Source: an uncultured Candidatus Saccharibacteria bacterium (GTDB taxonomy: Bacteria > Patescibacteriota > Minisyncoccia > UBA6257 > JACOXY01). Taken from it: a stretch of DNA of 64,000 nt. The translations under genes and the position numbers were made by a program. The notes beneath the pieces are model-generated. The model had not been told where the DNA came from. It worked only from the letters and a program-made list of their open reading frames with translations, and did not search any database. Below, piece after piece: positions 22,524 through 37,052 of this stretch. The stretch lies in NCBI GenBank assembly GCA_964357615.1, contig CAYHMC010000001.1:2602-66601 (forward strand). Reading direction: 5' to 3'. The stretch's first letter is position 1; each line of letters begins with the position of its first letter.

Positions 22524-22691
22524 TTTATAAAGATTTAACTTTGTTGACTAATTAAATAAAAATTCATATGCTATTGTAGTTAATAAAGGCACTTCTAAGT
22601 AGTATATTTTGTAGCCTAAAAAGCCTATACACTGACCTTAAAATTTGCGATTGTAAAAAGCCGAGATTGACTCGGTATTTCTTATGAAATT

Positions 22692-23234
22692 ATGTTAAAA
22701 CTTTTCACCAAAATACTAAAAACTCCTAGAAATACGATATCTATAGATGAAATTAATAATGAGCATGCGGAAGTGTTGGCAGTCGGTCAGAAAATACATG
22801 AAAAAGTAAAGCGTTTATTTAGAGGCTCTCTTGCTATTAGGCAAGTAGATGCGGGATCAGACAATGCTTGTGAGCAGGAATTAGTAGCACTTTCCAATGC
22901 TTTTTACGATATAGAGCGTTTTGGAATACATTTTGTAGCGTCACCCAAACACGCGGACATGTTAATGGTGACTGGCCCAGTAACTAGAAATATGGCTGAA
23001 GCTCTAAAGAGAGCATACGATGCAACACCAGATCCAAAGATTATCGTAGCTCTAGGAGACGATGCGATAGATGGGGGAATTTTTAAATCATCTTATGCGG
23101 TTCTAGATGGCGTTAAAGAAGTAATCCCAGTAGACTACAGTATTCCTGGTGACCCACCCACACCAAAGGTAATTCTCAATCATCTTTTGAAAATATTAGA
23201 AGTTATTGATGAGAAGTCATTAAAGTCAAAGTAA
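22692..23234 (+). CDS. NuoB/HycG-like small-subunit homolog of group-4 [NiFe] hydrogenase / complex I. It is degenerate, with 3 of 4 FeS-cluster Cys ligands replaced.
   Basis: The backbone ...FGIHFVASPKHADMLMVTGPVTRNM...DPKIIVALG..IPVDYSIPG.PP aligns with NuoB/HycG. At the ligand positions it reads DAGSDNACEQE, GDDAIDGG and PGDPP, where canonical sequences have C(G)xC..C, GxC..GG and GCPP. Confidence 0.75.
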   Translation: MLKLFTKILKTPRNTISIDEINNEHAEVLAVGQKIHEKVKRLFRGSLAIRQVDAGSDNACEQELVALSNAFYDIERFGIHFVASPKHADMLMVTGPVTRNMAEALKRAYDATPDPKIIVALGDDAIDGGIFKSSYAVLDGVKEVIPVDYSIPGDPPTPKVILNHLLKILEVIDEKSLKSK

Positions 23235-23235
23235 C

Positions 23236-25281
23236 ATGCTAGAAATATTTGCTTCATCACTTAGTTTTTTCGTTCTCCTATTCTTATTTTCCATTGGCGC
23301 AATTGGCTCTTTGGTTTTACGAAAAAATGATTGGATGGCAAATGGCTGGAGTAGTTTATTTGCAATTTCAGGTTCTATTTGGGGATTACTTTTATCAATT
23401 TCAATTTTTATAATGGGATCAGGAAAATCAATCTCACTTGGAAGATTTTCTTACCCGCTTCTAAATATTTCGTTTAATATAGATTTACTCTCAGTATTTT
23501 TTATATTTCTAATTTCCTTAATTACACTTTTCTGTTCAATATATGGAATTGGATATGTAAGACATTATTATAAAAAATATAACCTTGGTGTTCTAGGATT
23601 TTTTTACAACCTATTTATATTAGGCATGTACTTGGTTGTGACTGCGAGTAACGGATTACTTTTTTTAATTGCGTGGGAAGTTATGGCTCTAGCATCATAT
23701 TTTCTAGTAATTTATGACAGCAATGACCAAGAAAATATTAAAGCAGGATTCCTATATTTAGTAATGACTCATATTGGAACTGTCTTTATTACTATTTCAT
23801 TTTTGATGCTTTATAAATTTACTGGTTCATTTGATTTTGAAGCAATTAAAATTGGTTTGCCGTTTGTTCCACTTTACGCTAAAAATATTGTTTTTATTTT
23901 AGCTGTGCTTGGATTTGGAATGAAAGCCGGAATAATACCTTTGCATGTTTGGTTGCCCAAAGCTCATCCTGCCGCACCCTCCCATGTTTCTGGGCTGATG
24001 TCAGGCGTAATGATAAAAACTGGCATTTATATGATGATTAGAATGTTTATGGATATCCTCCAGCCAATTCCAGAATGGTGGGGATTTACATTAATGATAA
24101 TTGGTTCCGTTACAGCATTACTCGGAGTTCTTTATGCATTGGCTGAAAATGATATCAAAAGACTTCTAGCTTACTCCAGCATTGAAAATGTAGGTATTAT
24201 TTTGCTTGGATTGGGTAGCTCGCTTTCGTTTTATTCATTGGGCATGCATTCACTCGCGCTTCTTGGTTTAGTTGCGGCGCTATTCCACACTTTAAATCAC
24301 GCTATATTTAAGTCTCTTTTATTTTTGGGAGCAGGCTCTGTTATTTCGGAAACACATACTAGAAATATGGAAAACTATGGTGGACTTATAAAATACATGC
24401 CACAAACCGCATTATTTTTCTTAGTAGGTTCAATGGCTATATCATCTTTACCACCTCTTAATGGATTTTTTAGTGAGTGGATGACATTCCAAGCCATTTT
24501 TCAAGGAATAGCAACTCTGGGTATTTCTACAAGATGGGTATTTATTATTGCCGGAAGCTCACTTGCATTTACGGGTGGCTTAGCGCTTGCGTGTTTTGTA
24601 AAGGCATTTGGAACTATATTTTTAGCTCGACCAAGAAGTAGTGAAGTTAATCACGCCAGAGAATCTTCTATTTATTTGAAGATGAGCATGGGTTCGCTTG
24701 CGATTTTATCGCTACTTTTCGGATTGCTCTCTGGATTTGTATCGGCGTCAATTGAAAAAGTTGGTCGTGGCCTAAGTATTTTCAATGAAGTATCTTCTTT
24801 TGTATCAGTTTCACCATTTGGAAATATATCTGCCGGAAATTTGCCTTCGATCTCGGGTCCGTTAATGTTTGGTTCTCTAGTTGTAATAATATTAGGTGTT
24901 TTATTTGCAACAAAATATTTTGTTTATGGAGAGCAAAAAATAAAAATTGGAAACACTTGGGATTGCGGAATTGATTTAACTCCAAGAATGGAAATTACCT
25001 CAGCGGGATTTGCACACTCAATCATTACAATATTTAAAGGGGTGCTAAAACCAAGCTTACAACATGATGTTGAGTATCATGATGCAGATATCAGATATTT
25101 ACCAGAAACGAGAACTGTTACATTGAGTGTGAGAGATGTTTATCATCAATATTTATACAGACCACTAAATATTTTGGTAGAAGTATTATCAAAGAAAGCC
25201 AAAAAAATTCAAAGCGGAAATATTAATGCTTATATTCTTTATATTTTCATTGCATTATTAGTGGCATTGTATTTTGTATAA
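23236..25281 (+). CDS. NuoL/MrpA/HyfB-like antiporter-type membrane subunit
   Basis: About 16 TM helices. GIIPLHVWLPKAHPAAPSHVSGLMSGVMIKTGIY is the conserved NuoL/HycC proton-pumping motif region. It starts 2 nt after the upstream gene. Confidence 0.8.
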   Translation: MLEIFASSLSFFVLLFLFSIGAIGSLVLRKNDWMANGWSSLFAISGSIWGLLLSISIFIMGSGKSISLGRFSYPLLNISFNIDLLSVFFIFLISLITLFCSIYGIGYVRHYYKKYNLGVLGFFYNLFILGMYLVVTASNGLLFLIAWEVMALASYFLVIYDSNDQENIKAGFLYLVMTHIGTVFITISFLMLYKFTGSFDFEAIKIGLPFVPLYAKNIVFILAVLGFGMKAGIIPLHVWLPKAHPAAPSHVSGLMSGVMIKTGIYMMIRMFMDILQPIPEWWGFTLMIIGSVTALLGVLYALAENDIKRLLAYSSIENVGIILLGLGSSLSFYSLGMHSLALLGLVAALFHTLNHAIFKSLLFLGAGSVISETHTRNMENYGGLIKYMPQTALFFLVGSMAISSLPPLNGFFSEWMTFQAIFQGIATLGISTRWVFIIAGSSLAFTGGLALACFVKAFGTIFLARPRSSEVNHARESSIYLKMSMGSLAILSLLFGLLSGFVSASIEKVGRGLSIFNEVSSFVSVSPFGNISAGNLPSISGPLMFGSLVVIILGVLFATKYFVYGEQKIKIGNTWDCGIDLTPRMEITSAGFAHSIITIFKGVLKPSLQHDVEYHDADIRYLPETRTVTLSVRDVYHQYLYRPLNILVEVLSKKAKKIQSGNINAYILYIFIALLVALYFV

Positions 25282-25287
25282 CAAATT

Positions 25288-26220
25288 ATGATTATTTCTA
25301 CTACATTAATTCAATTAATTGTTACACCAGCGCTTTCCCCATTGGGTATTGGACTGATTAGAAAGATAAAAGCCAAGCTTCAGAATAGACAAGGAGCAAG
25401 TATCACACAACCGTATAGAGATTTATGGAAGCTTTTTCATAAAGACGAAGTGATAAGCAAAGATGCATCTTGGATTTTTAAATACGCGCCATATTTTGTT
25501 TTTGCGACCACAATTGTAGTTGGTTCTTGTATTCCATATATAGATTCCTTAGGACGAAGTATTTTAGCTCCAGACATGTTGGTTATTATTTATACTTTAG
25601 CAACAGGCACATTTTTTTTAGCATTGGCTGGAATGGATACCGGCGGTGGTTTCGGTGGTTTTGGATCTAGTCGTGAAATGACTATATCAGCCCTAGCTGA
25701 AGGGGGACTCATATTTTCATTTTTAACTTTATCAATAATTAGCCACACTACAAATTTACTCGAAATGGCAAATGGAATAAATTTAGCGTACGGAAATTTT
25801 TCCTTACCAATATTATTGGCTTTTTCAGGATATTTTATTGTGTTGCTTGCAGAAACATCAAGATTTCCATTCGATAATCCAGCGACTCATTTGGAACTTA
25901 CAATGATTCACGAAGCTATGATACTAGAATATTCTGGTAAAAAATTAGCCCTAATGGAATGGTCTGCCGCTAATAAGCTTTTTATTTTTGCTGTATTGGG
26001 TTCTAATTTATTTTTTCCTTGGTGGATAGCTTCTGGTGCAAGTATTTATTCTATTATTCAAGAGGTTATTGTTTTATTTATCAAACTATTACTCATCTAT
26101 ACCTCGATTGCATTATTAGAATCAAGCATCGCAAAATTTAGATTTTTTAGATTGCCAGATTTATTAATTATTTCATACATTCTTAATATTATTGCGATAG
26201 GATTAATAAATTACATATGA
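25288..26220 (+). CDS. NuoH/HycD-like membrane subunit
   Basis: 310 aa with 8 TM helices. Size and N-terminal region (TQPYRDLWKLFHK) match HycD/NuoH. Confidence 0.65.
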   Translation: MIISTTLIQLIVTPALSPLGIGLIRKIKAKLQNRQGASITQPYRDLWKLFHKDEVISKDASWIFKYAPYFVFATTIVVGSCIPYIDSLGRSILAPDMLVIIYTLATGTFFLALAGMDTGGGFGGFGSSREMTISALAEGGLIFSFLTLSIISHTTNLLEMANGINLAYGNFSLPILLAFSGYFIVLLAETSRFPFDNPATHLELTMIHEAMILEYSGKKLALMEWSAANKLFIFAVLGSNLFFPWWIASGASIYSIIQEVIVLFIKLLLIYTSIALLESSIAKFRFFRLPDLLIISYILNIIAIGLINYI

Positions 26221-26864
26221 TGATAATTTCTGAACAACTTTTGTTAACTCTATTTTTTGCAACAATTGTTTATTTTCATGTTGCGAAAAAAAATTATGGC
26301 GTTGCGATAACATATGGTATCCAGTCTTTTATTGTTGTCTTGTTGTTATTAAATTCATTCATGGAAACAAATTCAGTATCTCTACTTTTGATTGCATTTA
26401 TAGTTTTGATAGTAAAAGTGATTTTAACTCCTCTATTTATTATACAGCTGATTAAAAAACATGAATTAAAATTTTTAGTTAGTAGTTATACAAATACACC
26501 AATAACTCTTATCGTGGTTGCGATGCTTACCGCAGTTGCACATCTAAATATTTTTAAATCCCTGGTTAATATTGTTCCAGGCAACCAATCATTATTATTA
26601 CTAGCGCTATCGTCATTACTCATATCTTTATTTTTAATTGTAAACCGTAAGGGCGCATCTTCGCAGATTATTGGGATACTTTCGCTCGAAAACAGTATTG
26701 TGGTTTTTGCATTTTTTGCAGGCTTAGAGCAAGCAACCGCGCTTCAGATAGGCATTATATTTGATCTTTCTGTTTGGATAATAACGGCAACCGTTTTTAT
26801 GTCTATGATATATAGACATTTTGGTTCGCTCGATGTTACAGAAATGAAAAATTTAAAAGATTAA
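26217..26864 (+). CDS. HyfE-like small membrane subunit of hydrogenase-4-type complexes
   Basis: 215 aa with ~6-7 TM helices, the same size as E. coli HyfE. It sits between the NuoH-like and NuoN-like genes and overlaps the upstream gene by 4 nt. Confidence 0.5.
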   Translation: MMIISEQLLLTLFFATIVYFHVAKKNYGVAITYGIQSFIVVLLLLNSFMETNSVSLLLIAFIVLIVKVILTPLFIIQLIKKHELKFLVSSYTNTPITLIVVAMLTAVAHLNIFKSLVNIVPGNQSLLLLALSSLLISLFLIVNRKGASSQIIGILSLENSIVVFAFFAGLEQATALQIGIIFDLSVWIITATVFMSMIYRHFGSLDVTEMKNLKD

Positions 26865-26868
26865 AAAT

Positions 26869-28311
26869 ATGGAACTTACAATTATTTTAATATCAACATT
26901 AGCAACTGCTATCATTTGCTTAGCGTCAAGACAAAGATTAATTATTGAATTCGCGTCTGTTATTTCTGCTTTTGTCACATTATTTGAATCTACACTTGTT
27001 GCGTTAAAAGTTTCTTCATTCGGGACATACACTCCTTATAAATTTATAACAATTGATTCATTGGGGGCAATCGTTATGCTTATCATTTCTCTTGTTGGGT
27101 CTGCAGCGGTGATGTATTCGGTTGCCTATCTTAGAGAAGAAACAAAAAAACAAATTATTGGATTCACTCGGGTAAAACAGTATTTCGTATTGCTAAATCT
27201 TTTTTTAGCCGCAATGTTTTTAGCTGTCGCATCAAATAATCCCATTCTTACTTGGATTTCAATTGAAGCCACCACACTTTCAACAGCTTTCTTAATTAGT
27301 TTTTATAATAAACCAACATCACTAGAAGCAGCGTGGAAGTATTTGGTAATTAATTCTGTTGGCTTACTTTTGGGATTTTTTGGAACTTTACTTTATTTTA
27401 CTTCCTTTAAGTTGGTTGGCGAAGCGAATACAATTTCGTGGAATACCTTACTTTTGAATGCTGGTTATCTTGATCCAATGATTGCAAAAATAGCATTTGT
27501 TTTTGTACTTATAGGTTATGGTACAAAAATTGGTTTTGCTCCTATGCACACATGGCTTCCAGACGCTCACAGCAAGGCGCCTGCGCCAATTAGCGCGTTA
27601 CTCTCTGGAGTGTTGCTTAATGTTGCCTTTATTGCAGTTTTGCGGTTTAAATTAGTTACTGATGCGGCTGTTGGAATTGATTTTTCTAGAAACTTATTAA
27701 TTATTTTTGGTCTGCTTTCAATATTTGTAGCTTCGCTTATAATTTTCACGCAAAAGAATTACAAACGTATGCTGGCTTACTCAAGCATAGAGAATATGGG
27801 AATTATCGCGCTTGGTTTTGGTTTCGGAGGATTGGGAAGTGTCGCTGCTTTGCTTCATATGATCTATCATTCTTTACTTAAGTCTTCATTGTTTTTTTCT
27901 GCAGGAAACATATTTCTTAAATATAGTTCAACAAAAATTGATAAAATTAAGGGAACAATGAAAGCTTTACCAATCACTGCGGTACTATTTCTTATGGGAT
28001 TTTTCGCGATAACTGGTACGCCACCATTTGGTGTTTTTCTCACTAAAATATATATTTTATCAGCAGGCATGAGTGCACATCCAATAGTAACCGTTATTTC
28101 TTTTGTGCTTATGTCTTTGGTATTTGTAGGATTTTTTCAGAAAGCTGCAGCGATGACATTTGGTGAAAAACCACAAGGTATTGATTCTGGAGAAAATAAT
28201 GTTTGGCTTATTATTCCTTCGATGGCATTTATAACAATTGTAGTTTGTTTAAGTTTTTATATCCCACCATTTTTAATCAATTTATTAAACAGCACAGCTT
28301 CACATTACTAA
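26869..28311 (+). CDS. NuoN/NuoM/HyfF-like antiporter-type membrane subunit
   Basis: GFAPMHTWLPDAHSKAPAPISALLSGVLLNVAFIAVLRF; about 14 TM helices. Confidence 0.8.
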   Translation: MELTIILISTLATAIICLASRQRLIIEFASVISAFVTLFESTLVALKVSSFGTYTPYKFITIDSLGAIVMLIISLVGSAAVMYSVAYLREETKKQIIGFTRVKQYFVLLNLFLAAMFLAVASNNPILTWISIEATTLSTAFLISFYNKPTSLEAAWKYLVINSVGLLLGFFGTLLYFTSFKLVGEANTISWNTLLLNAGYLDPMIAKIAFVFVLIGYGTKIGFAPMHTWLPDAHSKAPAPISALLSGVLLNVAFIAVLRFKLVTDAAVGIDFSRNLLIIFGLLSIFVASLIIFTQKNYKRMLAYSSIENMGIIALGFGFGGLGSVAALLHMIYHSLLKSSLFFSAGNIFLKYSSTKIDKIKGTMKALPITAVLFLMGFFAITGTPPFGVFLTKIYILSAGMSAHPIVTVISFVLMSLVFVGFFQKAAAMTFGEKPQGIDSGENNVWLIIPSMAFITIVVCLSFYIPPFLINLLNSTASHY

Positions 28312-28312
28312 T

Positions 28313-29884
28313 ATGCAAAAGGAAAAAATTCAAAAATATATACCAGTAAATTCGAAAGCAGAATTTCTTAAAAATTCAGTACAATTTGAGGTTGAGTCAT
28401 TGGAAATATTAAAAATAGTGTCAAACTTGAAACACGAGCATAACTTAAGTTTAAAGCTAGTCACTGCTACGGATGAACAAAAAGAGCTAGGATGTTTTAG
28501 GATTTGGTACATTTTTGGAGTGCCCGATGAAGATGCTTTTGTTATTCCATATATTACGGTTAAGGATGCAAATGAATTTCCATCTATTACATCAATTTGC
28601 GGTGAGGCTATGGGGTATGAAATGAAGATTAGAACATTTTTTGGACTAAAACCAATTGGACACCCAGATTTTAGACAGACCATCCTGCATGAAAATTGGC
28701 CTGAAAATATACATCCACTTAGAAATGACTTCAAATGGGATAAGAGGCCAGAATTAGCACATGGGACATATAAGTTCCAAAAAGTTAATGGTGAGGGTAT
28801 TTATGAAATTCCAGTTGGACCAATACATGCTGGCATTATTGAACCTGGACACTTTAGATTTAGCGTTGCTGGTGAGAGGATTATGCTTTTAGAACCACGC
28901 CTAGGTTTTGTCCATAAAGGAAGTGAAAAGCTTTTTGAAATTCTTCCGATAGATCAAAAAATAAAGTTATCGGAAAAAATTTCTGGCGATAGCTCATTTA
29001 GTCATTCATTGGCATTTTGTGAGGCATTGGAGCAATTGAGTGACACTATAGTATCAAGTCGAGCAAAATATTTGAGAGTTATATTTGCAGAACTAGAAAG
29101 ACTCGCAAATCATTTTGGAGATATTGGTGCAATTATGATAGATACTGGTTTTAATTTTGGCGGAAGTAATGGGTCACGATTGCGCGAGATAATAATGCAG
29201 ATTAATGAGCGTCTTACTGGTAGCAGGTTCTTGCGTGGCGTAAATAAAATTGGCGGTGTTTCAAAAGATTTAAATAATGAAGAAAAGTCTCTTTTATCCT
29301 CTGATTTGGATAGAATACTAAAAGATTTTGGTGAAGTTATAAATGTTGCAGAAAATAGCGTGTCATTATTAAACAGATTAAAGGGGACTGGAGTCATAGC
29401 AAAAGAAGTTGCACAATTGAATGGCGTGATGGGGGTTGCGGGACGTGCTACTGGAATTGTTAGTGATGCAAGAATTGATTATAAATATGCAGCATATGGT
29501 GAAATTACTCCATTTGATATTGCGGTTGAGAATGACGGGGATGTATTTGCAAGATTTAATGTGCGCATTAAAGAAGTTCGCACATCGCATAAAATTATAA
29601 AAAATGCGTTGAAGAATTTACCTGAAGGCTCTATTAGAAGCGATGAGATGAATTCTGAATTTAAAGCGAATTCTCTCGCGATTAGTATTGTTGAGGGTTG
29701 GCGAGGAGAAATTGTTTACTTCGTAACAACCGATTCACATGGGAATATAAGTAGAGTCGTGCCTCGTGATCCGTCACAAATGAATTGGTCTGTACTTAAA
29801 GATGCTGGTTTTGATAATGTTGTACCAGATTTTCCATTAATAAATAAAAGCTTTAACTTATCATACTCTGGAAACGATTTATAA
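28313..29884 (+). CDS. Fused NuoC-NuoD / HycE-like large-subunit homolog of group-4 [NiFe] hydrogenase. All four Ni-Fe-binding Cys are absent.
   Basis: The N-terminal ~150 aa are NuoC-like (YEMKIRTFFGLKPIGHPDFRQTIL). Next comes VGPIHAGIIEPGHFRFSVAGE, which is HycE-like rather than NuoD-like. At the L1 position it reads KISGDSSFSHS where canonical sequences have RxCGxCxxxH. The C-terminus reads DFPLINKSFNLSYSGNDL where canonical sequences have DAPLIxxSLDPCxSCTDR. Confidence 0.8.
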   Translation: MQKEKIQKYIPVNSKAEFLKNSVQFEVESLEILKIVSNLKHEHNLSLKLVTATDEQKELGCFRIWYIFGVPDEDAFVIPYITVKDANEFPSITSICGEAMGYEMKIRTFFGLKPIGHPDFRQTILHENWPENIHPLRNDFKWDKRPELAHGTYKFQKVNGEGIYEIPVGPIHAGIIEPGHFRFSVAGERIMLLEPRLGFVHKGSEKLFEILPIDQKIKLSEKISGDSSFSHSLAFCEALEQLSDTIVSSRAKYLRVIFAELERLANHFGDIGAIMIDTGFNFGGSNGSRLREIIMQINERLTGSRFLRGVNKIGGVSKDLNNEEKSLLSSDLDRILKDFGEVINVAENSVSLLNRLKGTGVIAKEVAQLNGVMGVAGRATGIVSDARIDYKYAAYGEITPFDIAVENDGDVFARFNVRIKEVRTSHKIIKNALKNLPEGSIRSDEMNSEFKANSLAISIVEGWRGEIVYFVTTDSHGNISRVVPRDPSQMNWSVLKDAGFDNVVPDFPLINKSFNLSYSGNDL

Positions 29885-29948: not shown

Positions 29949-30287
29949 TCAGTCTTTTTCTACGAAACTAATACCATCGAAATCAACAAATACTGGAATA
30001 ACTGGAATTTTGCTTAAGGATACCGGGCCAAATTTCTCAACGACCTGCTTAGCGATGACTAAATCATTTAGTATTTTTTCTTTCGGTGTATTGCCGTATG
30101 CGCCACAAGTTTCATGAGCCATAAGAACTATTCTCGGAGGATGATGTAGTTCAATGGTTCGCTTGATTTGCTTGAGGACATAAATTCTATCGCTTTCATG
30201 TTCAGGGCTTGCTAAGTCTTTTGCGCCACCAGCAATCGTAATTCGATCAACTTTATCAATTTCAAGAATGGTTTTAAGTTCGGTCAT
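29949..30287 (-). CDS. Hypothetical conserved small protein immediately downstream of atpC
   Basis: 112 aa; contains the motif LMAHETCGAYG (HxxCG). No family could be assigned by eye. Confidence 0.4.
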   Translation of the reverse strand: MTELKTILEIDKVDRITIAGGAKDLASPEHESDRIYVLKQIKRTIELHHPPRIVLMAHETCGAYGNTPKEKILNDLVIAKQVVEKFGPVSLSKIPVIPVFVDFDGISFVEKD

Positions 30288-30370: not shown

Positions 30371-32033
<1,663 letters not shown>

Positions 32034-32094
32034 TTATTTCAATAAACGACTTTGTATTGTTTTTCATCATATATTTATAAAATGCGATCGCGGC

Positions 32095-32119
32095 TTCGTA
32101 CGGGATCATCCCGTACGAA
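32095..32119. promoter_or_regulatory. Perfect 12-1-12 palindrome (TTCGTACGGGAT-c-ATCCCGTACGAA) inside the atpG-atpD intergenic gap; a candidate operator or RNA hairpin
   Basis: It is flanked by related copies: tcatcccgaacgaa at 31986-31999 and tacgggatca at ~32218-32230. It is also flanked by the palindromes agatcgcgatct (32002-32013) and gcgatcgc (32083-32090). Confidence 0.5.
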
Positions 32120-32225
32120 ATAGGACGCGAACATTTTTTATTATCTACATTGTTTACTAATTATTATTAAGCTTTTATTAATCATTGTCATTATCATATA
32201 TGCGTGTCCGCTATTTCATACGGGA

Positions 32226-33155
32226 TCATGTGTTTGAATTTACTCCGGCAGATATTTCAGATAACTCTTGAGTAATAGCTGCTTGACGAGATTTATTAAA
32301 AATAAGTTGTAAATTATCTTTTAAGTCTGCGGCATTGTCTGACGCGCTCTTCATTGCTACCATTCTTGCTGAATGTTCTGAAGCATTAGATTCGAGTATT
32401 AAGTGATATATTACCATTTCTACTAGGTGTTTGGTTAAATCATTTAAAAGTTTCTGCGCTTCTTCTTTTGATGATGGCTCTGTAATATATTCAAAATGGT
32501 CGCTTAAAATTGATTTTGAATCATTGGCTTCTGAAAAACGACCATATTCTGGCACAAGTTCTTTAATATCTTCTTCAATTTTTTCAAAACTAATGGGAAG
32601 TAATTCACGAATCAAGACATCTTGACGAAGAGTTGTTTTAAAATGTGTGCTAATGGTTATAACTTTTGACCATTTACCACTCAAGAAACCATCAATAACA
32701 AAGTCAGCAAAATCTTGTGTGTGTTGTGGTGTGGCATAATCTCCAAACTTAGTAAACGATTTTTCTGTTCTTAAATTTTTGCGAACCAAATAATCTTCAG
32801 ATTTTTTACCTACTGCCGCATAAAGATATTTGTCAGAATCATCGGTAAAACTTTTCTCAAATTTTCTAAGTACGTTGCTGTTTAGTGATCCCGCGAGCCC
32901 TTTGTCTGCTGAAATAAGAATCACTAATGTTTTTCCGGACTCGCCTGACTCTACCATAAGAGCTGATTTGTGAGGAGAACGTTTTGAAATTTCACGCAAA
33001 ATTTCCATACCTGCAATTGCATATGGTCTGGAATTTAGCGCTAAAACCTGCGCTTTGCGCATTTTGTTGCTCGCAACCATTTCCATCGCCTTAGTAATTT
33101 GCTCGGTATTCCCAACTGATTTTATTCTTCTTTTAATTGATTGAGTAGATTCCAT
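32226..33155 (-). CDS. atpG: F-type ATP synthase gamma subunit
   Basis: 309 aa; the N-terminal IKRRIKSVGNTEQITKAMEMVA and C-terminal ...ITQELSEI match gamma. Confidence 0.88.
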   Translation of the reverse strand: MESTQSIKRRIKSVGNTEQITKAMEMVASNKMRKAQVLALNSRPYAIAGMEILREISKRSPHKSALMVESGESGKTLVILISADKGLAGSLNSNVLRKFEKSFTDDSDKYLYAAVGKKSEDYLVRKNLRTEKSFTKFGDYATPQHTQDFADFVIDGFLSGKWSKVITISTHFKTTLRQDVLIRELLPISFEKIEEDIKELVPEYGRFSEANDSKSILSDHFEYITEPSSKEEAQKLLNDLTKHLVEMVIYHLILESNASEHSARMVAMKSASDNAADLKDNLQLIFNKSRQAAITQELSEISAGVNSNT

Positions 33156-34678
33156 TATAGTGTGTTCTTAAAATTTTGAATTGCCAATTTTAATTTCTCT
33201 TCAATTTCTGTTGTCAGTTCTTTGGTGGTTCTTATGGGTTCTAATAAGTCGACGTCATGTCGCCCTCGCATATATTCCAAATATTTATTTTCAATATTTT
33301 TAAGATTTTGTACTGCCACATCATCAAAATAACCATTAATTGTTGCATAAAACACTAGCACCTGACTTTCAAATGGAAGAGGAGATGCATCATTCTGTTT
33401 CAATATTTCAGTTATCATTTGACCTCGTTTAATTTTATTTTTTGTCCCTTCGTCTAGATCTGATGCAAATTGAACAAATGCTTGTAATTCTCTAAACTGT
33501 GCCAATTCAAGACGAAGTTTACCAGAAACTTTTTTCATAGCTTTTGTTTGAGCTGAAGATCCTACGCGAGAAACAGAAAGTCCTGCGTTAATTGCTGGTC
33601 TAATACCCTGATAGAAAAGATCTGCCTCTAAATAAATTTGACCATCTGTAATAGAAATAACGTTGGTTGGAACATAGGCAGATACATCGCTTAGTTGAGT
33701 CTCTATTATTGGAAGCGCTGTTAAGGAGCCACCCCCTTTTTCTTTGCTTAATTTTGCAGAGCGTTCAAGAAGCCTAGAGTGGAGATAAAAAATATCTCCA
33801 GGATAAGCTTCTCTACCAGGAGTGCGTCGCAAGAGTAAAGAAATTTGTCTGTATGCAGTGGCGTGCTTTGAAAGGTCGTCATAGATAATCAATGAATCTT
33901 GACCTTGATCCATAAAATATTCTCCAATTGCACACCCCGCATATGGCGCTAAATACCAAAAAGATGCAGGGGAAGAAGCACCTGCCACAACTACAATTGT
34001 GTATTTCATGGCACCGGCCGCTTCAAGCTCTGATATTATTTTTGCAACATTTGATTCTTTTTGACCAATTGCAACATAAATACAAATCGGAATTTTCTGT
34101 CCTTTCTCATTTTGCTGATTAACAATCGTATCAATAGCTATTGCTGTTTTGCCAGTTTGGCGGTCGCCAATAATTAGCTCGCGTTGGCCTCGTCCTATTG
34201 GAATCATAGAATCTATTGCTTTAATTCCAGTATGAATTGGTGATTTTACTGACTCACGTTCAAGAACTGAAGGGGCCCGCTTTTCAATTGGGTAATTGGC
34301 TGGCTTAGCGCCTTTCCATATATCTCCTTTGCCATCAATAGGCTCTCCAAGGGGGTTAATAACCCTTCCAATGAGTTCTGGTCCCACTTTAATACTTAAC
34401 ACCTCTCCAGTGCTCTTTACCTCATCTCCGGCTTTAATTTTCTTAAAATCACCAAGAACAATTGCTCCAATTGATGATTCTTCTAAATTTAACGCCACAG
34501 CTTTAATGGACCCATCCTTGGTTTCGATGCTTAACATTTCTTGGCTCATTGCATTACTTAACCCCTGAATTTTAACTACGCCATCGGCAACCTCGATAAT
34601 ATTACCTATTTTAGAAATTAAAACATCACTCTTTGCGTTTTCAATTTCCCTTTTGAGTTTTTCAATTATTTCAAACAT
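33155..34678 (-). CDS. atpA: F-type ATP synthase alpha subunit
   Basis: [15 protein letters not shown] (P-loop) and ...[14 protein letters not shown]; 507 aa. Confidence 0.93.
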
Positions 34679-35040
34679 TTTAGTCTGTTCTGCAATGAGC
34701 TATCGATAGACAGCTCATCGTTAATTGTTATTTTTATACCAGCAATAAGTTTCTTGTTTATTTTAAAAGTCACATCACTATTTTTATTAAAAGAATTTTT
34801 AACTTTATCTATGAGTGGCTTACTTAATTCTCGAGCCGTTTCAATTTTAATTATTGAAATATTTTCCTTTGAGGCGATATTTTTTTTTATTTCATTGAAT
34901 ATTTTATTTGAATCTTTAATTGCCCCATGCTTTTTTAAGACAGAAGTAAAATTATTACACAGTTCATTATATTGGCTTTCTGGTGTTTTGAGTAACACTT
35001 CGCAAAATGCTTTAGCGAAAATTGTTGGTGAATATTGCAT
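34666..35040 (-). CDS. atpH: F-type ATP synthase delta (OSCP) subunit, short form
   Basis: It lies between atpF and atpA. The N-terminal [11 protein letters not shown] resembles the delta N-terminal YAKALFE motif. At 124 aa it is shorter than the usual ~180 aa. Confidence 0.6.
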
Positions 35041-35549
35041 TAGGATATATTGTTTTTACGCAAATTAGTGACGGTTTGCTCAATTAGTTTTTCATCTATG
35101 GCGCTAGGGGATAGCAGAACGGTTTTCTCTATTGCTAATTTAACAAATTCTAAAGCTTCACTGTAAAATTTAGCTTTTTCTTTTAATATTTCTTCGTTGC
35201 CTCTTGCCACAGCTCCCAAAAGCAATTCATCGCCTTTTTTGCGAGCAACTTCCAATAATTCGACTTCTTGTGCTTTTGTTTTTATTTGCATTGCTCCCAG
35301 TATATTAAGCGATTCTTTTTCAGCTTCGGACAGCTTTTCCGCCTTTATTCTCTCTGACGCTTCAAGTTCTTTTTTAGCAAGTTCCGCATCTTCTATACCT
35401 TTTTGTATTTTATTTCTCCTTAATTCAAGAATGCTAAGTAGTGGTTTGTAAACTGTAAATCGTAATATTATTAGTACAATCAAAAAATTAATTGCTTGAA
35501 CAGCAAGTAATTTGAAGTTAACACCCAATTGTGAAAATAATTCAGACAT
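35040..35549 (-). CDS. atpF: F-type ATP synthase subunit b
   Basis: A single N-terminal TM helix followed by a long charged coiled coil (KAEKLSEAEKES...); assigned partly by position. Confidence 0.75.
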   Translation of the reverse strand: MSELFSQLGVNFKLLAVQAINFLIVLIILRFTVYKPLLSILELRRNKIQKGIEDAELAKKELEASERIKAEKLSEAEKESLNILGAMQIKTKAQEVELLEVARKKGDELLLGAVARGNEEILKEKAKFYSEALEFVKLAIEKTVLLSPSAIDEKLIEQTVTNLRKNNIS

Positions 35550-35564
35550 ACCTTAACTTACTTA

Positions 35565-35792
35565 TTATACGAATTTTAATATAAGCGCTACGACTAATGC
35601 GTAAATAGCGATTGCTTCAGCAAAAGCGATAGCTAATATCATTGCTGTTTGAACTTTTGGTGCTGCTTCTGGGTTTCTTCCAATTGCTTCTGCTCCTCTT
35701 GAACCAATAAGTCCAATCGCTATAGCTGGGCCAATAGTACCAAGTGCCATTATAATTCCAATCGCTAACATTTTCATTGTTTCTGCGTCCAT
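35565..35792 (-). CDS. atpE: F-type ATP synthase subunit c
   Basis: 75 aa hairpin protein with IGRNPE in the loop and [12 protein letters not shown] carrying the conserved carboxylate. No Na+-type Q/ES/T residues are present, so it is probably H+-coupled. Confidence 0.9.
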
Positions 35793-35861
35793 CCCGTTAG
35801 AGGTCCCGTTTCGTAGGCTGTTCTGATAGTTTTATTATCGAGTACATACCTCTAATGGGAT
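35791..35861. promoter_or_regulatory. Imperfect inverted repeat (atcccgttagaggt ... acctctaatgggat) in the atpB-atpE intergenic region
   Basis: The arms match at 13 of 14 positions and are separated by ~43 nt. It shares the ATCCCGT k-mer with the atpG-atpD palindrome. Confidence 0.35.
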
Positions 35862-35916
35862 CCATTTTATTTTTAATAATTTTAATTAATATTAATGTTT
35901 CGACCAAGTTTTAATT

Positions 35917-36660
35917 TCAGTGACTTTCTTCAATCGTTGCGATTGTTATAAATACCAGCGTTAGCATTGCAAATACGAATGCCTGAATAAATCCAACGAA
36001 TATCTCAAGCAGTATAAATGGTAGCGGTGCTATAAGCGGCAGAAGGAAAACAATAATAATTAGTAATACTTCTCCAGCAAATACATTACCAAACAACCTA
36101 AATGAGAACGAGATTATTTTAGCAATTTCTGAGATTAATTCAAGTATTCCAATAAAAAACCCAATCGGACTTTTAAAATTTATAAATTTTTTAAAATGAG
36201 AAATCGCACCAATTGCACTAATTCCAAAAATATTAACTCCAATCACTGCGATAAGAGCAATGGCAATAGTAAAGTTTAAGTCCGCTGCTGGAGCTCGGAA
36301 TAGTGGAATTAGTTGGGTTTCTTCTCCGTGAGTCTCGTAGAGGCCAATAGATCCAATTCCAGGGAGTAGTCCAAGCCAGTTTGAAATAAGAACAAAAAAG
36401 AAAATTGTTGCGACCAGCGGGAAGTATTTTTTAGTTTTTTCTTCATCATTTATGACGGAGTTACATAGCGAAAGCATTCCCTCAAAAGCAAACTCTAAGA
36501 AATTTTGAAATTTACCTGGAATTAAAGTAAGTCTATTTTTAAAAAATATTCCTAAAACAATAAGAATAGCTGAAGTTATAAATGCTAAAGCTACTGAATT
36601 TGTTATATCCAAGCCCCAAAAATAGAATAAATGCTCTGCTTTGATTGAAATTTCTGGCAT
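35917..36660 (-). CDS. atpB: F-type ATP synthase subunit a
   Basis: 247 aa with 5-6 TM helices. The C-terminal region ...RLFGNVFAGEVLL contains the conserved R in the penultimate helix. Confidence 0.88.
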   Translation of the reverse strand: MPEISIKAEHLFYFWGLDITNSVALAFITSAILIVLGIFFKNRLTLIPGKFQNFLEFAFEGMLSLCNSVINDEEKTKKYFPLVATIFFFVLISNWLGLLPGIGSIGLYETHGEETQLIPLFRAPAADLNFTIAIALIAVIGVNIFGISAIGAISHFKKFINFKSPIGFFIGILELISEIAKIISFSFRLFGNVFAGEVLLIIIVFLLPLIAPLPFILLEIFVGFIQAFVFAMLTLVFITIATIEESH

Positions 36661-36725
36661 AAAAAATATGCCTACATTGTAACAGGGAAGTGTTGAAAAA
36701 TAAAGCGATTTAGTAAAATAACCTT

Positions 36726-37052
36726 TTAGTTTAAGGCCCTCAATAATTCATTGTATTGATTTATTGAAGCAACTCCCAACCAAAGCATTAGAGCTATAGA
36801 AAAAATTGTAAGAACTAAAGATGCTACGCCAATCATTCTGGCTTTTGGATCTGACTGCCGAATATATTTAACTGTATAGCCTAGTCCAAACGGAGCTAAA
36901 AAGAAACTTACCAGATAAATAATTATTTGTTTATTGGTAGATGTGTTGATTGGAGTTACCCTAATATTAAATCCGCAACGCGGACAAAAATAAGCACCTG
37001 CTGGCACTGTCGTTCCACAAGAGGAACAAGCCGTTTCAGTTAGAGTGTTCAT
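36726..37052 (-). CDS. Zinc-ribbon protein with two C-terminal TM helices, at the position usually occupied by atpI/atpZ
   Basis: N-terminal CSSCGTTVPAGAYFCPRCGF (CxxC-x11-CxxC) followed by 2 hydrophobic helices. Confidence 0.45.
   Translation of the reverse strand: MNTLTETACSSCGTTVPAGAYFCPRCGFNIRVTPINTSTNKQIIIYLVSFFLAPFGLGYTVKYIRQSDPKARMIGVASLVLTIFSIALMLWLGVASINQYNELLRALN

Follow-up and report, generated by a model that had tools for sequence, protein, structure and literature searches.

The small subunit (EhrS) of an energy-converting hydrogenase-related (Ehr) complex from an ultra-small groundwater Patescibacterium (CPR) has aspartate in place of three of the four cysteines that hold a [4Fe-4S] cluster in its solved relatives. 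A Cys-poor small subunit recurs in 12 of 12 Patescibacteria genome loci and in all 120 of the closest database homologues. In the usual understanding of complex I, of membrane-bound hydrogenases, and of the enzymes related to them, electron transfer is turned into ion pumping, and the NuoB-type cluster, located beside the coupling site, is the last electron station. The account that we consider probable, if not strongly so, is that EhrS, with negative charge now filling its former cluster pocket, persists as a cluster-free structural and coupling subunit of a redox-inert and probably Mrp-like ion translocator.

EhrS belongs to the NuoB/HycG/MbhJ family

EhrS (180 amino acids) is encoded at positions 22692–23234 on the plus strand of the window, by which we mean the whole 64,000-nucleotide stretch of DNA analyzed. 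It matches Pfam PF01058 (Oxidored_q6) at 2.2e-26, its 92.5 bits well above the cutoff of 27, and the NCBIfam NuoB subfamily at 120.8 bits, and its PDB matches include MbhJ (6cfw_J, 4e-30) and HycG (7z0s_G, 1e-29), at 38–39% identity. The AF2 model has a pLDDT of 92.8; in Foldseek, it superposes on MbhJ with an rmsd of 2.0 Å over 137 alignment columns, and the highest TM score is 0.89, normalized by target length. By both sequence and fold homology, EhrS is a member of the NuoB/HycG/MbhJ family (the flavodoxin-like 20-kDa subunit), and the Pfam, NCBIfam, PDB, and Foldseek matches bear out its description as a NuoB-like small subunit in the first-pass annotation. HycG of the E. coli FHL and MbhJ of the P. 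furiosus MBH are its closest matches in sequence and structure, and it shares with NuoB/PSST/Nqo6 of complex I the same fold and the same place, where the peripheral arm meets the membrane arm. The identical 180-residue protein is found on contigs of three independent samples. Databases label CPR proteins of the EhrS type as NuoB or as a hydrogenase small subunit.

Aspartate occupies three of the four ligand positions

In HycG and MbhJ, the proximal [4Fe-4S] cluster is bound through CxxC, GxC, and GCPP motifs and passes electrons on to the NiFe site, whereas here both sets of ligands are gone. The corresponding stretches of EhrS, aligned with these nearest cluster-bearing relatives, read D57-x-x-C60, G-D123-D124, and G-D154-PP. 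At the former CxxC motif (22860–22871, plus strand; now D57-N-A-C60, GAC AAT GCT TGT), residue-level alignment places EhrS 'GSDNACEQE' opposite 'GSCNGCDIE' of MbhJ (6cfw_J) and 'GGCNGCEIE' of HycG (7z0s_G), such that the first ligand has become D57 (GAC, 22860–22862) and the second is kept as C60 (TGT, 22869–22871). The 'GAC' of the solved homologues aligns with 'GDD' in EhrS, where the codons for D123 and D124 (GAC GAT) span 23058–23063 on the plus strand; D124 (GAT, 23061–23063) replaces the third ligand cysteine, and D123 beside it is ancestral in Ehr. In the last motif, 'PGCPP' aligns with 'PGDPP', and the fourth ligand is now D154 (GAC, 23151–23153, plus strand). Cluster N2 of complex I is held by a tandem CC and two further cysteines, and the 'CC' of PSST aligns with 'AC' in EhrS. 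Of the four cysteines that characterize a [4Fe-4S] subunit of this kind (CxxC or CC; GxC; GCPP), one is left. Each change from Cys (TGY) to Asp (GAY) requires two nucleotide substitutions.

The in-frame translation of 22848–23159 (EhrS residues 53–156) reads DAGSDNACEQE...TGPVT...GDDAIDGG...PGDPP, in exact agreement with the motif strings quoted in the first-pass annotation, and the alignments to solved homologues uphold its central claim that aspartate has replaced cysteine at three of four ligand positions. One of its entries, a single ligand cysteine now reading GPV, must be withdrawn: TGPVT aligns with the Cys-free segments TGPVT, TGAVT, or AGTLT of cluster-containing homologues, and the list of five Cys-bearing positions given there thus contains a spurious one.

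The operon encodes an Ehr complex

The EhrS gene is the first of a six-gene operon (22692–29884, all on the plus strand) in the order S-A-B-C-D-L, comprising two antiporter-like subunits, a NuoH-like and a HyfE-like subunit, and a large and a small subunit. EhrA (23236–25281, 681 residues) is a HyfB/NuoL-like antiporter-type membrane subunit (Pfam Proton_antipo_M, 6e-62) that matches the NCBIfam model for hydrogenase-4 subunit B at 1e-199, its 664.8 bits lying slightly below the 667-bit cutoff. EhrB (25288–26220, 310 residues) is HyfC/NuoH-like (Pfam NADHdh, 1e-42), and EhrC (26217–26864, 215 residues) is a HyfE-like membrane subunit, recognized by the NCBIfam model for the HyfE-type hydrogenase-4 membrane subunit at 4.5e-16 (59.4 bits, under the 136-bit cutoff). 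EhrD (26869–28311, 480 residues), the second antiporter-type membrane subunit, is HyfF/NuoN-like (Proton_antipo_M, 7e-53) and matches NCBIfam HyfF at 1.5e-131 (439.8 bits, under the 610-bit cutoff). Charged residues conserved in the respective families are largely retained (16/18 in EhrA, 21/24 in EhrB, 4/6 in EhrC, and 14/18 in EhrD). Several otherwise invariant membrane charges are altered in CPR, namely E177Q in EhrC and E236K, H309N, and E393K in EhrD; in EhrC, a membrane glutamate has undergone a CPR-specific relocation, E177Q occurring together with G171E. Given these altered charges, the transport properties of the CPR complex may differ from those of its known relatives.

EhrL (28313–29884, 523 residues) is a fused NuoC-NuoD/HycE-like large subunit (Pfam Complex1_30kDa and Complex1_49kDa), with HycE as its best PDB match (7z0s_E, 1.4e-63). 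In alignments to HycE and Nqo4, the former L1 NiFe motif (RxCGxCxxxH; 28976–29005, plus strand) reads K-I-S-G-D-S-S-F-S-H, with both cysteines changed to serine, and the former L2 motif (DPCxxC; 29855–29878, plus strand) reads N-L-S-Y-S-G-N-D, with serine and glycine for cysteine. The four NiFe cysteines of HycE therefore correspond to S, S, S, and G, and the L1/L2 CxxC Ni-Fe motifs by which a group 4 membrane-bound [NiFe]-hydrogenase (Hyc/Hyf/Mbh/Ech) is recognized are missing. Two hallmarks of complex I are likewise absent, the tandem CC of N2 and the quinone-site tyrosine, Nqo4 Y87 being replaced by glycine in EhrL. The large subunit lacks NiFe ligands in all related loci compared; nearly all of the ~75 such loci share an R/K-x-S-G-D-S motif, and the SGDS and SYSGxD motifs of the former NiFe pocket are kept family-wide in Ehr, whether the small subunit is Cys-less or not.

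Unlike complex I, which has NuoI, NuoEFG, and quinone-site residues, the operon contains no ferredoxin-like (NuoI/HycF) or NuoEFG-like subunit; these, Hyp maturation genes, and HycF/EchF/MbhN were found neither in the operon nor conserved in the flanks of the 12 CPR loci. None of the small Mrp subunits (MrpB, C, E, F, and G) is present in the operon. Because the large subunit has lost its four NiFe cysteines and a ferredoxin-like subunit is absent, the operon, judged by its genes, encodes an Ehr complex of groundwater CPR/Patescibacteria. Its nearest relatives are Ehr operons, including that of Geobacter, and the 68 non-CPR loci compared are of the Ehr type wherever the large subunit was recovered. 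The Ehr of Geobacter sulfurreducens, said to have been described by Marreiros et al. in 2013, reportedly comprises GSU0739-0745 (EhrA-D, EhrL, and EhrS). Geobacter-type Ehr has the same six subunit types and the same R-x-S-G-D-S and S-Y-S-G-x-D motifs in the large subunit, and it too is without a NuoI-like ferredoxin subunit; EhrS identity to these loci is 51–55%. The small subunit is encoded last in Geobacter and Rhizobium (A-B-C-D-L-S) and first here, an S-A-B-C-D-L order shared with Ehr loci of Acidobacteria and Chloroflexi. Described Ehr complexes typically have a complete [4Fe-4S] motif in the small subunit; here, the four positions read DCDD.

The six-gene order is conserved in the nine CPR loci of sufficient length (L001–L007, L011, and L012) and agrees, over their extent, in three shorter ones (L008–L010). 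According to the large-subunit phylogeny of Jaffe et al. 2020, CPR Ehr is monophyletic, is without the Ni/Fe-binding cysteines, and 'likely cannot interact with H2' (PMC7304191); the present complex evidently belongs to this CPR-specific clade. The loss of NiFe ligands from the large subunit of CPR Ehr was thus already known, and in the passages of that paper examined, only the large subunit of Ehr is discussed. The loss of the EhrS cluster ligands, its DCDD and TEGD solutions, and the Chloroflexi loss described below were not found in the literature searched, including these passages, and the conserved loss of the small-subunit ligands appears to be new.

Genomic neighborhood

An F1Fo ATP synthase operon adjoins the Ehr operon. 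We considered whether a Na+-coupled ATP synthase would support a sodium cycle and set this aside: the c subunit of the adjacent enzyme appears to be without the Na+ signature motif. Directly downstream of the Ehr operon is a Pro_CA_2-like gene on the minus strand (29949–30287). A carbonic-anhydrase link reminiscent of NDH-1/CupA or DAB systems was likewise rejected, such a gene being absent beside all 12 related CPR operons. An FDH-Ehr link has been proposed for Margulisbacteria (PMC6349859). A comparable conserved redox partner was sought by comparing the flanks of 14 CPR loci all against all, and no family beyond the six operon genes was conserved around them. The window gave no Rfam match to rRNA, and its taxonomic placement follows from protein homologues and the source of the contig; a scan for promoters and terminators returned no signal above shuffled expectation.

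Conservation and independent loss of the cluster ligands

Two solutions are found at the four former ligand positions in CPR. In type 1, to which the present EhrS belongs, the pattern is DCDD or DCDN: among the 120 closest homologues, D57 is conserved in 97%, C60 in 93%, D123 in 100%, and D124 in 99%, and position 154 is Asp in 80% and Asn in the remaining 20%. C60 is replaced by Ala, Val, or Ile in 8 of these 120 and in locus L007. Type 2 has T-E-G-D (E60 100%, G124 99%, and D154 100%), with a carboxylate moved, in effect, from position 124 to 60. This apparent swap between C60/D124 and E60/G124 is phylogenetically confounded because it is essentially a single contrast between two clades. All 240 CPR sequences have two or three carboxylates at the four positions; rare sequences with none or one (TCGN, SAES, and DCAA) count against a refilling of the pocket with negative charge. 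Beside the former ligands, E61 and D123 are both 100% conserved.

In contrast, the four cysteines are intact (CCCC) in 68 of 68 non-CPR Ehr loci, although the large subunits there are already NiFe-less. The first-pass annotation had called a cluster-less NuoB homolog uncommon, which holds outside CPR; within CPR, it is the rule, across hundreds of sequences. It had also proposed looking in related genomes for cysteine at these positions, as a sign of sequencing error or recent decay, and aspartate was found instead. Its suggestion that the choice of aspartate is meaningful gains from the conservation of D57, D124, and D154, from the two nucleotide changes that each replacement needs, and from a Chloroflexi lineage in which the cluster ligands were also lost, with a D-A-A-D pattern that again has Asp at positions 1 and 4. 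The residues seen across the Cys-less lineages are D/T/N/S at position 1, C/A/V/I/E at position 2, D/G/A/E at position 3, and D/N at position 4.

Locus L084 falls within a Cys-containing clade in 91 of 100 bootstraps, and none of the 100 unites all the Cys-less sequences. On this phylogeny, no fewer than two losses of the cluster occurred independently, the Chloroflexi loss being separate from that in CPR. When all six subunits of the three Cys-less lineages were compared, the only convergent changes were at the three Cys positions, so that a correlated remodeling, in which the large or the NuoH-like subunit adapted to the missing cluster, was rejected. Repeated loss of the cluster with no other convergent change suggests that Ehr does not need it for its core function. 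EhrS has the lowest pN of the operon (0.21; pS is saturated at ~0.77), and its identity across CPR loci is 65–80%, compared with 50–70% for the other subunits; by these measures, it is the most constrained subunit.

Discussion

The conservation data already refute the notion that the operon is a decaying remnant left after loss of a hydrogenase, or that the substitutions are an assembly or sequencing artifact, and we give it practically no weight. CPR genomes are indeed reduced, and Ehr is patchily distributed among them (PMC7304191). Against this, six of six reading frames are intact, identical EhrS comes from three independent samples, 240 homologues share the same patterns, and synteny is kept at 50–80% identity despite saturated synonymous sites, with the lowest pN in EhrS itself. 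Continued binding of an FeS cluster through the aspartate carboxylates and C60, in a complex that still works as a redox enzyme with electrons from a soluble donor, is very unlikely. The predicted structure preserves the fold and the geometry of the pocket, and in some proteins a single Asp can ligate a [4Fe-4S] cluster, as in Pyrococcus furiosus ferredoxin; however, to our knowledge, every [4Fe-4S] site has at least two Cys ligands. The one cysteine left is dispensable, as relatives replace it, by Ala/Val/Ile in the 8 homologues and L007 and by Glu throughout type 2. Type 2 and Saccharibacteria have Gly at position 3, and a fifth of type 1 has Asn at position 4. Moreover, an electron would find no acceptor site, the NiFe ligands and quinone tyrosine being absent, and the NuoI/HycF-like relay is missing from the operon and the CPR flanks. 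The view of the first-pass annotation that the cluster is no longer bound is therefore supported.

D57, D123, D124, and D154, with E61 nearby, might form a true site for a cation (Mg2+, Ca2+, Mn2+, Fe2+, or Na+) that serves as a structural cofactor or as a gating switch or sensor, a possibility that we take seriously but think improbable. Three carboxylates sit where the cubane sat, at positions that ligate one cluster in 6cfw_J and 7z0s_G; carboxylates appear to have been selected convergently in independent losses; and oxygen-ligand sites for hard cations tolerate D/N exchange at one position. Yet no former ligand position is invariant across the Cys-less lineages, and this variation (D/N, D/T, and D/G) weakens the case for a strict four-ligand site. 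Saccharibacteria (DCGD) and Chloroflexi (DAAD) have two carboxylates only, EhrS shows no recognizable metal-binding motif, and the full conservation of D123 and E61 is no evidence for a new site because both are present in cluster-containing Ehr. It is less likely still that the EhrL pocket and the acidic cluster of EhrS together run or sense a non-redox step (protonation, CO2/bicarbonate, or a ligand) coupled to ion movement. The strictly conserved polar SGDS and SYSGxD motifs of the former NiFe pocket throughout the Ehr family, the strong constraint on both S and L, and the Pro_CA_2-like gene downstream in the window would fit such a step; the carbonic-anhydrase-like neighbor is conserved in none of the 12 related CPR loci, however, and we can name neither a candidate substrate nor catalytic residues for a step that would be without known precedent in the Ehr family.

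We return to EhrS as a cluster-free element of a probable redox-inert translocator. With the FeS ligands lost and the NiFe ligands, the quinone tyrosine, a ferredoxin-like subunit, and a conserved partner absent, no site for any redox cofactor of the complex I/hydrogenase family is apparent in this Ehr complex. EhrS would then have been kept to cap the NuoH-like subunit and dock the large subunit, as both a structural and a coupling element. The cluster pocket presumably arose to accommodate the -2/-3 charge of [Fe4S4(SCys)4], which is buried there, and the two or three carboxylates that refill it would restore this charge and the hydrogen-bond network and may, in addition, bind water or a cation. 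The complex would most plausibly exchange cations for protons independently of redox chemistry, in the manner of Mrp or of a gated version of it, with this antiport driven by a proton gradient from the adjacent F1Fo ATPase. There is a parallel in deactive complex I, which carries out Na+/H+ antiport once its redox arm is uncoupled (Roberts & Hirst 2012, PMC3464577). As in Mrp, there are two MrpA/MrpD-type antiporter-like subunits with most conserved charged residues kept (16/18 and 14/18), a likeness of functional analogy and not of family membership, Mrp being without NuoB-, NuoD-, or NuoH-like subunits. For the same reason, the ~700 cytoplasmic residues of S and L would be superfluous in a pure antiporter, yet they are the best-conserved parts of the complex, which counts against the antiporter reading. 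Together with the retained SGDS and SYSGxD motifs, this conservation hints that the peripheral arm has a ligand or a chemistry as yet unrecognized.

A bolder version, which we regard as unlikely, makes the carboxylate cluster the working coupling element of an electron-free, complex-I-like machine, that is, a pH- or ion-driven, or ion-gated, transducer. Protonation and deprotonation, or cation binding, at D57/D124/D154 would mimic the -2/-3 charge change of the FeS cluster and trigger the same relay of conformational changes, passed on to the NuoH-like subunit and to the antiporter modules. If this were true, nature would in effect have tested, in this complex, whether coupling in complex I is driven by the charge state of N2 itself.

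More broadly, this is a large and strongly conserved family that keeps the whole architecture of peripheral subunits, NuoH-like subunit, and two antiporter modules after losing the ligands for all redox cofactors known in this enzyme family. For bioenergetics, it is a naturally occurring case in which to test the contribution of the peripheral arm beyond electron transfer and any part played in coupling by charge at the N2 position. Metabolic reconstructions of CPR would lose a supposed 'hydrogenase/NADH dehydrogenase', and the complex would point to ion homeostasis instead.

Identity and predicted fold of the small subunit

The small subunit of the Ehr operon, EhrS, is encoded by an intact ORF of 180 aa (22692-23234, + strand), which contains the region 22848-23159, translating in frame to DAGSDNACEQE ... 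TGPVT ... GDDAIDGG ... PGDPP. EhrS matches Pfam PF01058 (2e-26) and scores only slightly over the cutoff of the NCBIfam NuoB subfamily model. Its best matches among solved structures are Pyrococcus MbhJ, from the membrane-bound hydrogenase (6cfw_J, 4e-30), and E. coli HycG, from formate hydrogenlyase (7z0s_G, 1e-29); the PSST/NuoB chains of complex I rank next, and by homology EhrS classes as a NuoB/HycG-type small subunit. A confident AlphaFold2 model (131 homologues as input, pLDDT 92.8) superposes on MbhJ with an rmsd of 2.0 Å over 137 alignment columns and on Aquifex NuoB with 1.6 Å over 134; the fold is thus predicted to be kept, and sequence and model together place EhrS in the NuoB fold family. 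A G+C-rich hairpin (22660-22676, GCCGAG-ATTGA-CTCGGT, then a T-rich tail) lies upstream of EhrS, its end 15 nt before the start codon; it could terminate the preceding ychF gene or have a regulatory role.

Where EhrS departs from NuoB and HycG is in the ligands of the [4Fe-4S] cluster. In residue alignments to solved homologues, the hydrogenase CxxC becomes D57-N-A-C60, the GxC motif G-D123-D124, and the GCPP motif G-D154-PP, while the tandem CC of complex I reads A-C. Asp therefore replaces Cys at three of the four ligand positions, leaving a single Cys, as the first-pass annotation had proposed. Its further reading of GPV as the replacement of a single ligand Cys does not hold, because cluster-containing homologues have no Cys at that site.

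Composition of the operon and the former NiFe site

EhrS is the first of six closely packed genes (22692-29884, + strand), followed by the HyfB/NuoL-like A (681 aa), the HyfC/NuoH-like B (310 aa), the HyfE-like C (26217-26864, 215 aa), the HyfF/NuoN-like D (26869-28311, 480 aa), and EhrL, a fused NuoC-NuoD/HycE-like large subunit (523 aa). Ehr complexes have this composition; the six genes include neither a NuoI/HycF-type ferredoxin subunit nor a NuoEFG-like module. In EhrL, the four NiFe cysteines of HycE align with Ser, Ser, Ser, and Gly, and the quinone Tyr87 of Thermus Nqo4 aligns with Gly. Large-subunit motifs, subunit set, and phylogenetic neighborhood all assign the complex to the Ehr family, and it lacks the defining features of both true group 4 hydrogenases and complex I.

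Scanning one genome per species yielded 80 loci, in which all recovered large subunits are Ehr-type and nearly all carry R/K-x-S-G-D-S and S-Y-S-G-x-D. At the former NiFe site, R/K-x-S-G-D-S and N-x-S-Y-S-G-x-D (28976-29005 and 29855-29878 in the window) are conserved family-wide, in almost all of ~75 related loci, which suggests a preserved pocket rather than a degenerate one.

Conservation of the Cys-poor site in the CPR clade

The identical small subunit occurs on contigs of three independent samples, one of them named as a Hainich 0.1-µm sample, and the closest homologues come from Patescibacteria/CPR MAGs (Staskawiczbacteria, Magasanikbacteria, Moranbacteria, Peregrinibacteria, and Saccharibacteria). 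In the 80-locus scan, all 12 Patescibacteria loci are Cys-poor (65-80% identity), whereas all 68 others, from Acidobacteria, Chloroflexi, Geobacter, Rhizobium, and further groups, retain C-C-C-C (51-72% identity). The cluster is thus retained as a rule in Ehr and missing specifically in the CPR clade. One MAG labelled Patescibacteria (L033, 10001-17705) has an Ehr operon with the canonical four Cys that clusters with Chloroflexi/Acidobacteria operons, and could reflect misbinning or horizontal transfer.

The Asp residues are indeed conserved in related genomes: of the 120 closest proteins in the database (70-82% identity), 97% keep D57, 93% C60, 99% D124, and 80% D154, which is otherwise Asn. 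The order S-A-B-C-D-L is syntenic in every CPR locus of sufficient length. Synonymous sites are saturated between CPR loci (pS ~0.77), and S has the lowest nonsynonymous divergence of the six genes (pN 0.21 versus 0.23-0.27), being the most conserved subunit at the protein level too. Pseudogenization is excluded by the conserved Cys-poor pattern, the synteny, and the low pN of S, and sequencing error by the recurrence of the pattern in all 12 Patescibacteria loci and the 120 closest proteins.

Independent losses and recurrent carboxylates

In an exhaustive HMMER search against 50%-identity representatives, 92 of the best 150 clusters carry C-C-C-C at the four ligand positions and ~20 full-length clusters are Cys-poor, with varied residues (SEGD, NEGD, DAAD, DADN, SAES, ECED, DVDD, and DIDD, among others). 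A second large CPR clade, comprising Kaiserbacteria and other Parcubacteria, has T/N/S57, E60 (100%), G124 (99%), and D154 (100%), with its carboxylate at 60 instead of 124 as in the window's clade. Since both residues ligate one cubane in homologues, 60 and 124 are inferred to lie side by side. Two or three carboxylates occupy the four positions in 240 of 240 CPR sequences. Of the TEGD-type subunits of the second clade (e.g., L085 10001-10537; P0300-P0418), 56% carry a new Cys at position 126 (GDGACTGG), two residues past the lost ligand position.

A Chloroflexi protein with D-A-A-D (P0124) is encoded in the same six-gene operon type, and 118 of its 120 nearest relatives have C-C-C-C. In a neighbor-joining tree of concatenated S, B, and L (965 columns, 100 bootstraps), it falls inside a Cys-containing Chloroflexi/Acidobacteria clade in 91 of 100 replicates; all 100 recover the window's CPR clade as monophyletic, and none unites all Cys-less sequences in one group. 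By this placement the cluster was lost at least twice. Asp stands at the first and fourth positions after both losses, bearing out the earlier view of Asp as a notable replacement. A change from Cys (TGY) to Asp (GAY) takes two nucleotide changes, yet Asp recurs, which favors selection over drift as the cause. Among the conserved positions of the six subunits, the three cysteines alone changed in all three Cys-less lineages, and the remaining machine, the large-subunit pocket included, did not co-adapt to cluster loss.

Membrane arm and genomic neighbors

Family-conserved charged residues are largely kept in the membrane arm (A 16/18, B 21/24, C 4/6, D 14/18). In the CPR clade, the C subunit combines E177->Q with G171->E, shifting a Glu by six residues, and the D subunit shows E236->K, H309->N, and E393->K; in non-CPR Ehr loci the altered charges are otherwise conserved (45/45 for C, 55-56/56 for D). 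These changes may alter the ion pathway or its specificity. In a Moraniibacteriota locus (L007, 7420-8868), the large-subunit gene is followed directly by an additional gene for a HyfF-like antiporter subunit, 60% identical to D of the window.

No conserved partner gene was found in the flanks of CPR Ehr operons. The window's operon is adjoined by a convergent, apparently complete F1Fo ATP synthase operon (30371-37052, - strand), in which beta (30624-32024, -) is assigned by homology and the other subunits by ORF order and size alone; an ATP synthase lies near the Ehr operon of another CPR locus (L002) too. The c subunit (35565-35792, -) reads ...FAEAIAIY..., without Ser/Thr after Glu, a motif that we take to suggest H+ rather than Na+ coupling. 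Between the two operons, a 112-aa ORF (29949-30287, -) matches Pro_CA_2 slightly over the cutoff (Pfam, 1e-7) as a putative carbonic anhydrase; 0 of 12 related CPR loci have such a gene beside the Ehr operon.

Discussion

The window's Ehr operon retains no Cys-based FeS site, NiFe ligands, quinone Tyr, or relay subunit. With no site visible for any redox cofactor of the family, we take the complex to be redox-inert. The small subunit would be kept because it joins the large subunit to the NuoH-like one, and the pocket that once stabilized the buried -2/-3 charge of [Fe4S4(SCys)4] would now be refilled with two or three carboxylates. Such charge replacement would account for the preference for Asp/Glu, the tolerated D/N exchange, the swap from 124 to 60, and the convergent solution in Chloroflexi. 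An FeS cluster ligated unusually by Asp is very unlikely, given that Ala, Val, Ile, or Glu can stand in for the sole Cys. The data are compatible with a true cation site in the acidic pocket, but every ex-ligand position varies between lineages and D123 and E61 occur in cluster-containing Ehr as well, which makes this reading unlikely.

As for function, redox-independent cation/proton exchange is the most economical proposal, on the model of Mrp and of deactive complex I, which turns into a Na+/H+ antiporter when decoupled from the redox arm (PMC3464577). That S, L, and the SGDS/SYSG motifs are strongly conserved would also fit a nonredox chemical or sensory role of the peripheral arm, which we consider quite unlikely; the downstream carbonic-anhydrase-like gene is not kept beside related operons.

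A monophyletic CPR clade of Ehr large subunits without NiFe cysteines has already been reported (Jaffe et al. 2020, PMC7304191); the passages of that paper retrieved by term search make no mention of small-subunit cluster ligands. In the searchable literature, a scope that leaves out the founding Ehr paper, we found no account of small subunits of Ehr that have lost their FeS ligands. We therefore rate the Ehr family as known and, as new, a widespread Ehr lineage that, as far as its sequences indicate, has no site for known redox cofactors and in which conserved acidic residues would serve as a surrogate for cluster N2. This can be expected to surprise specialists in complex I and hydrogenases; although we only infer the function itself, the role of a peripheral arm without electrons becomes directly testable.
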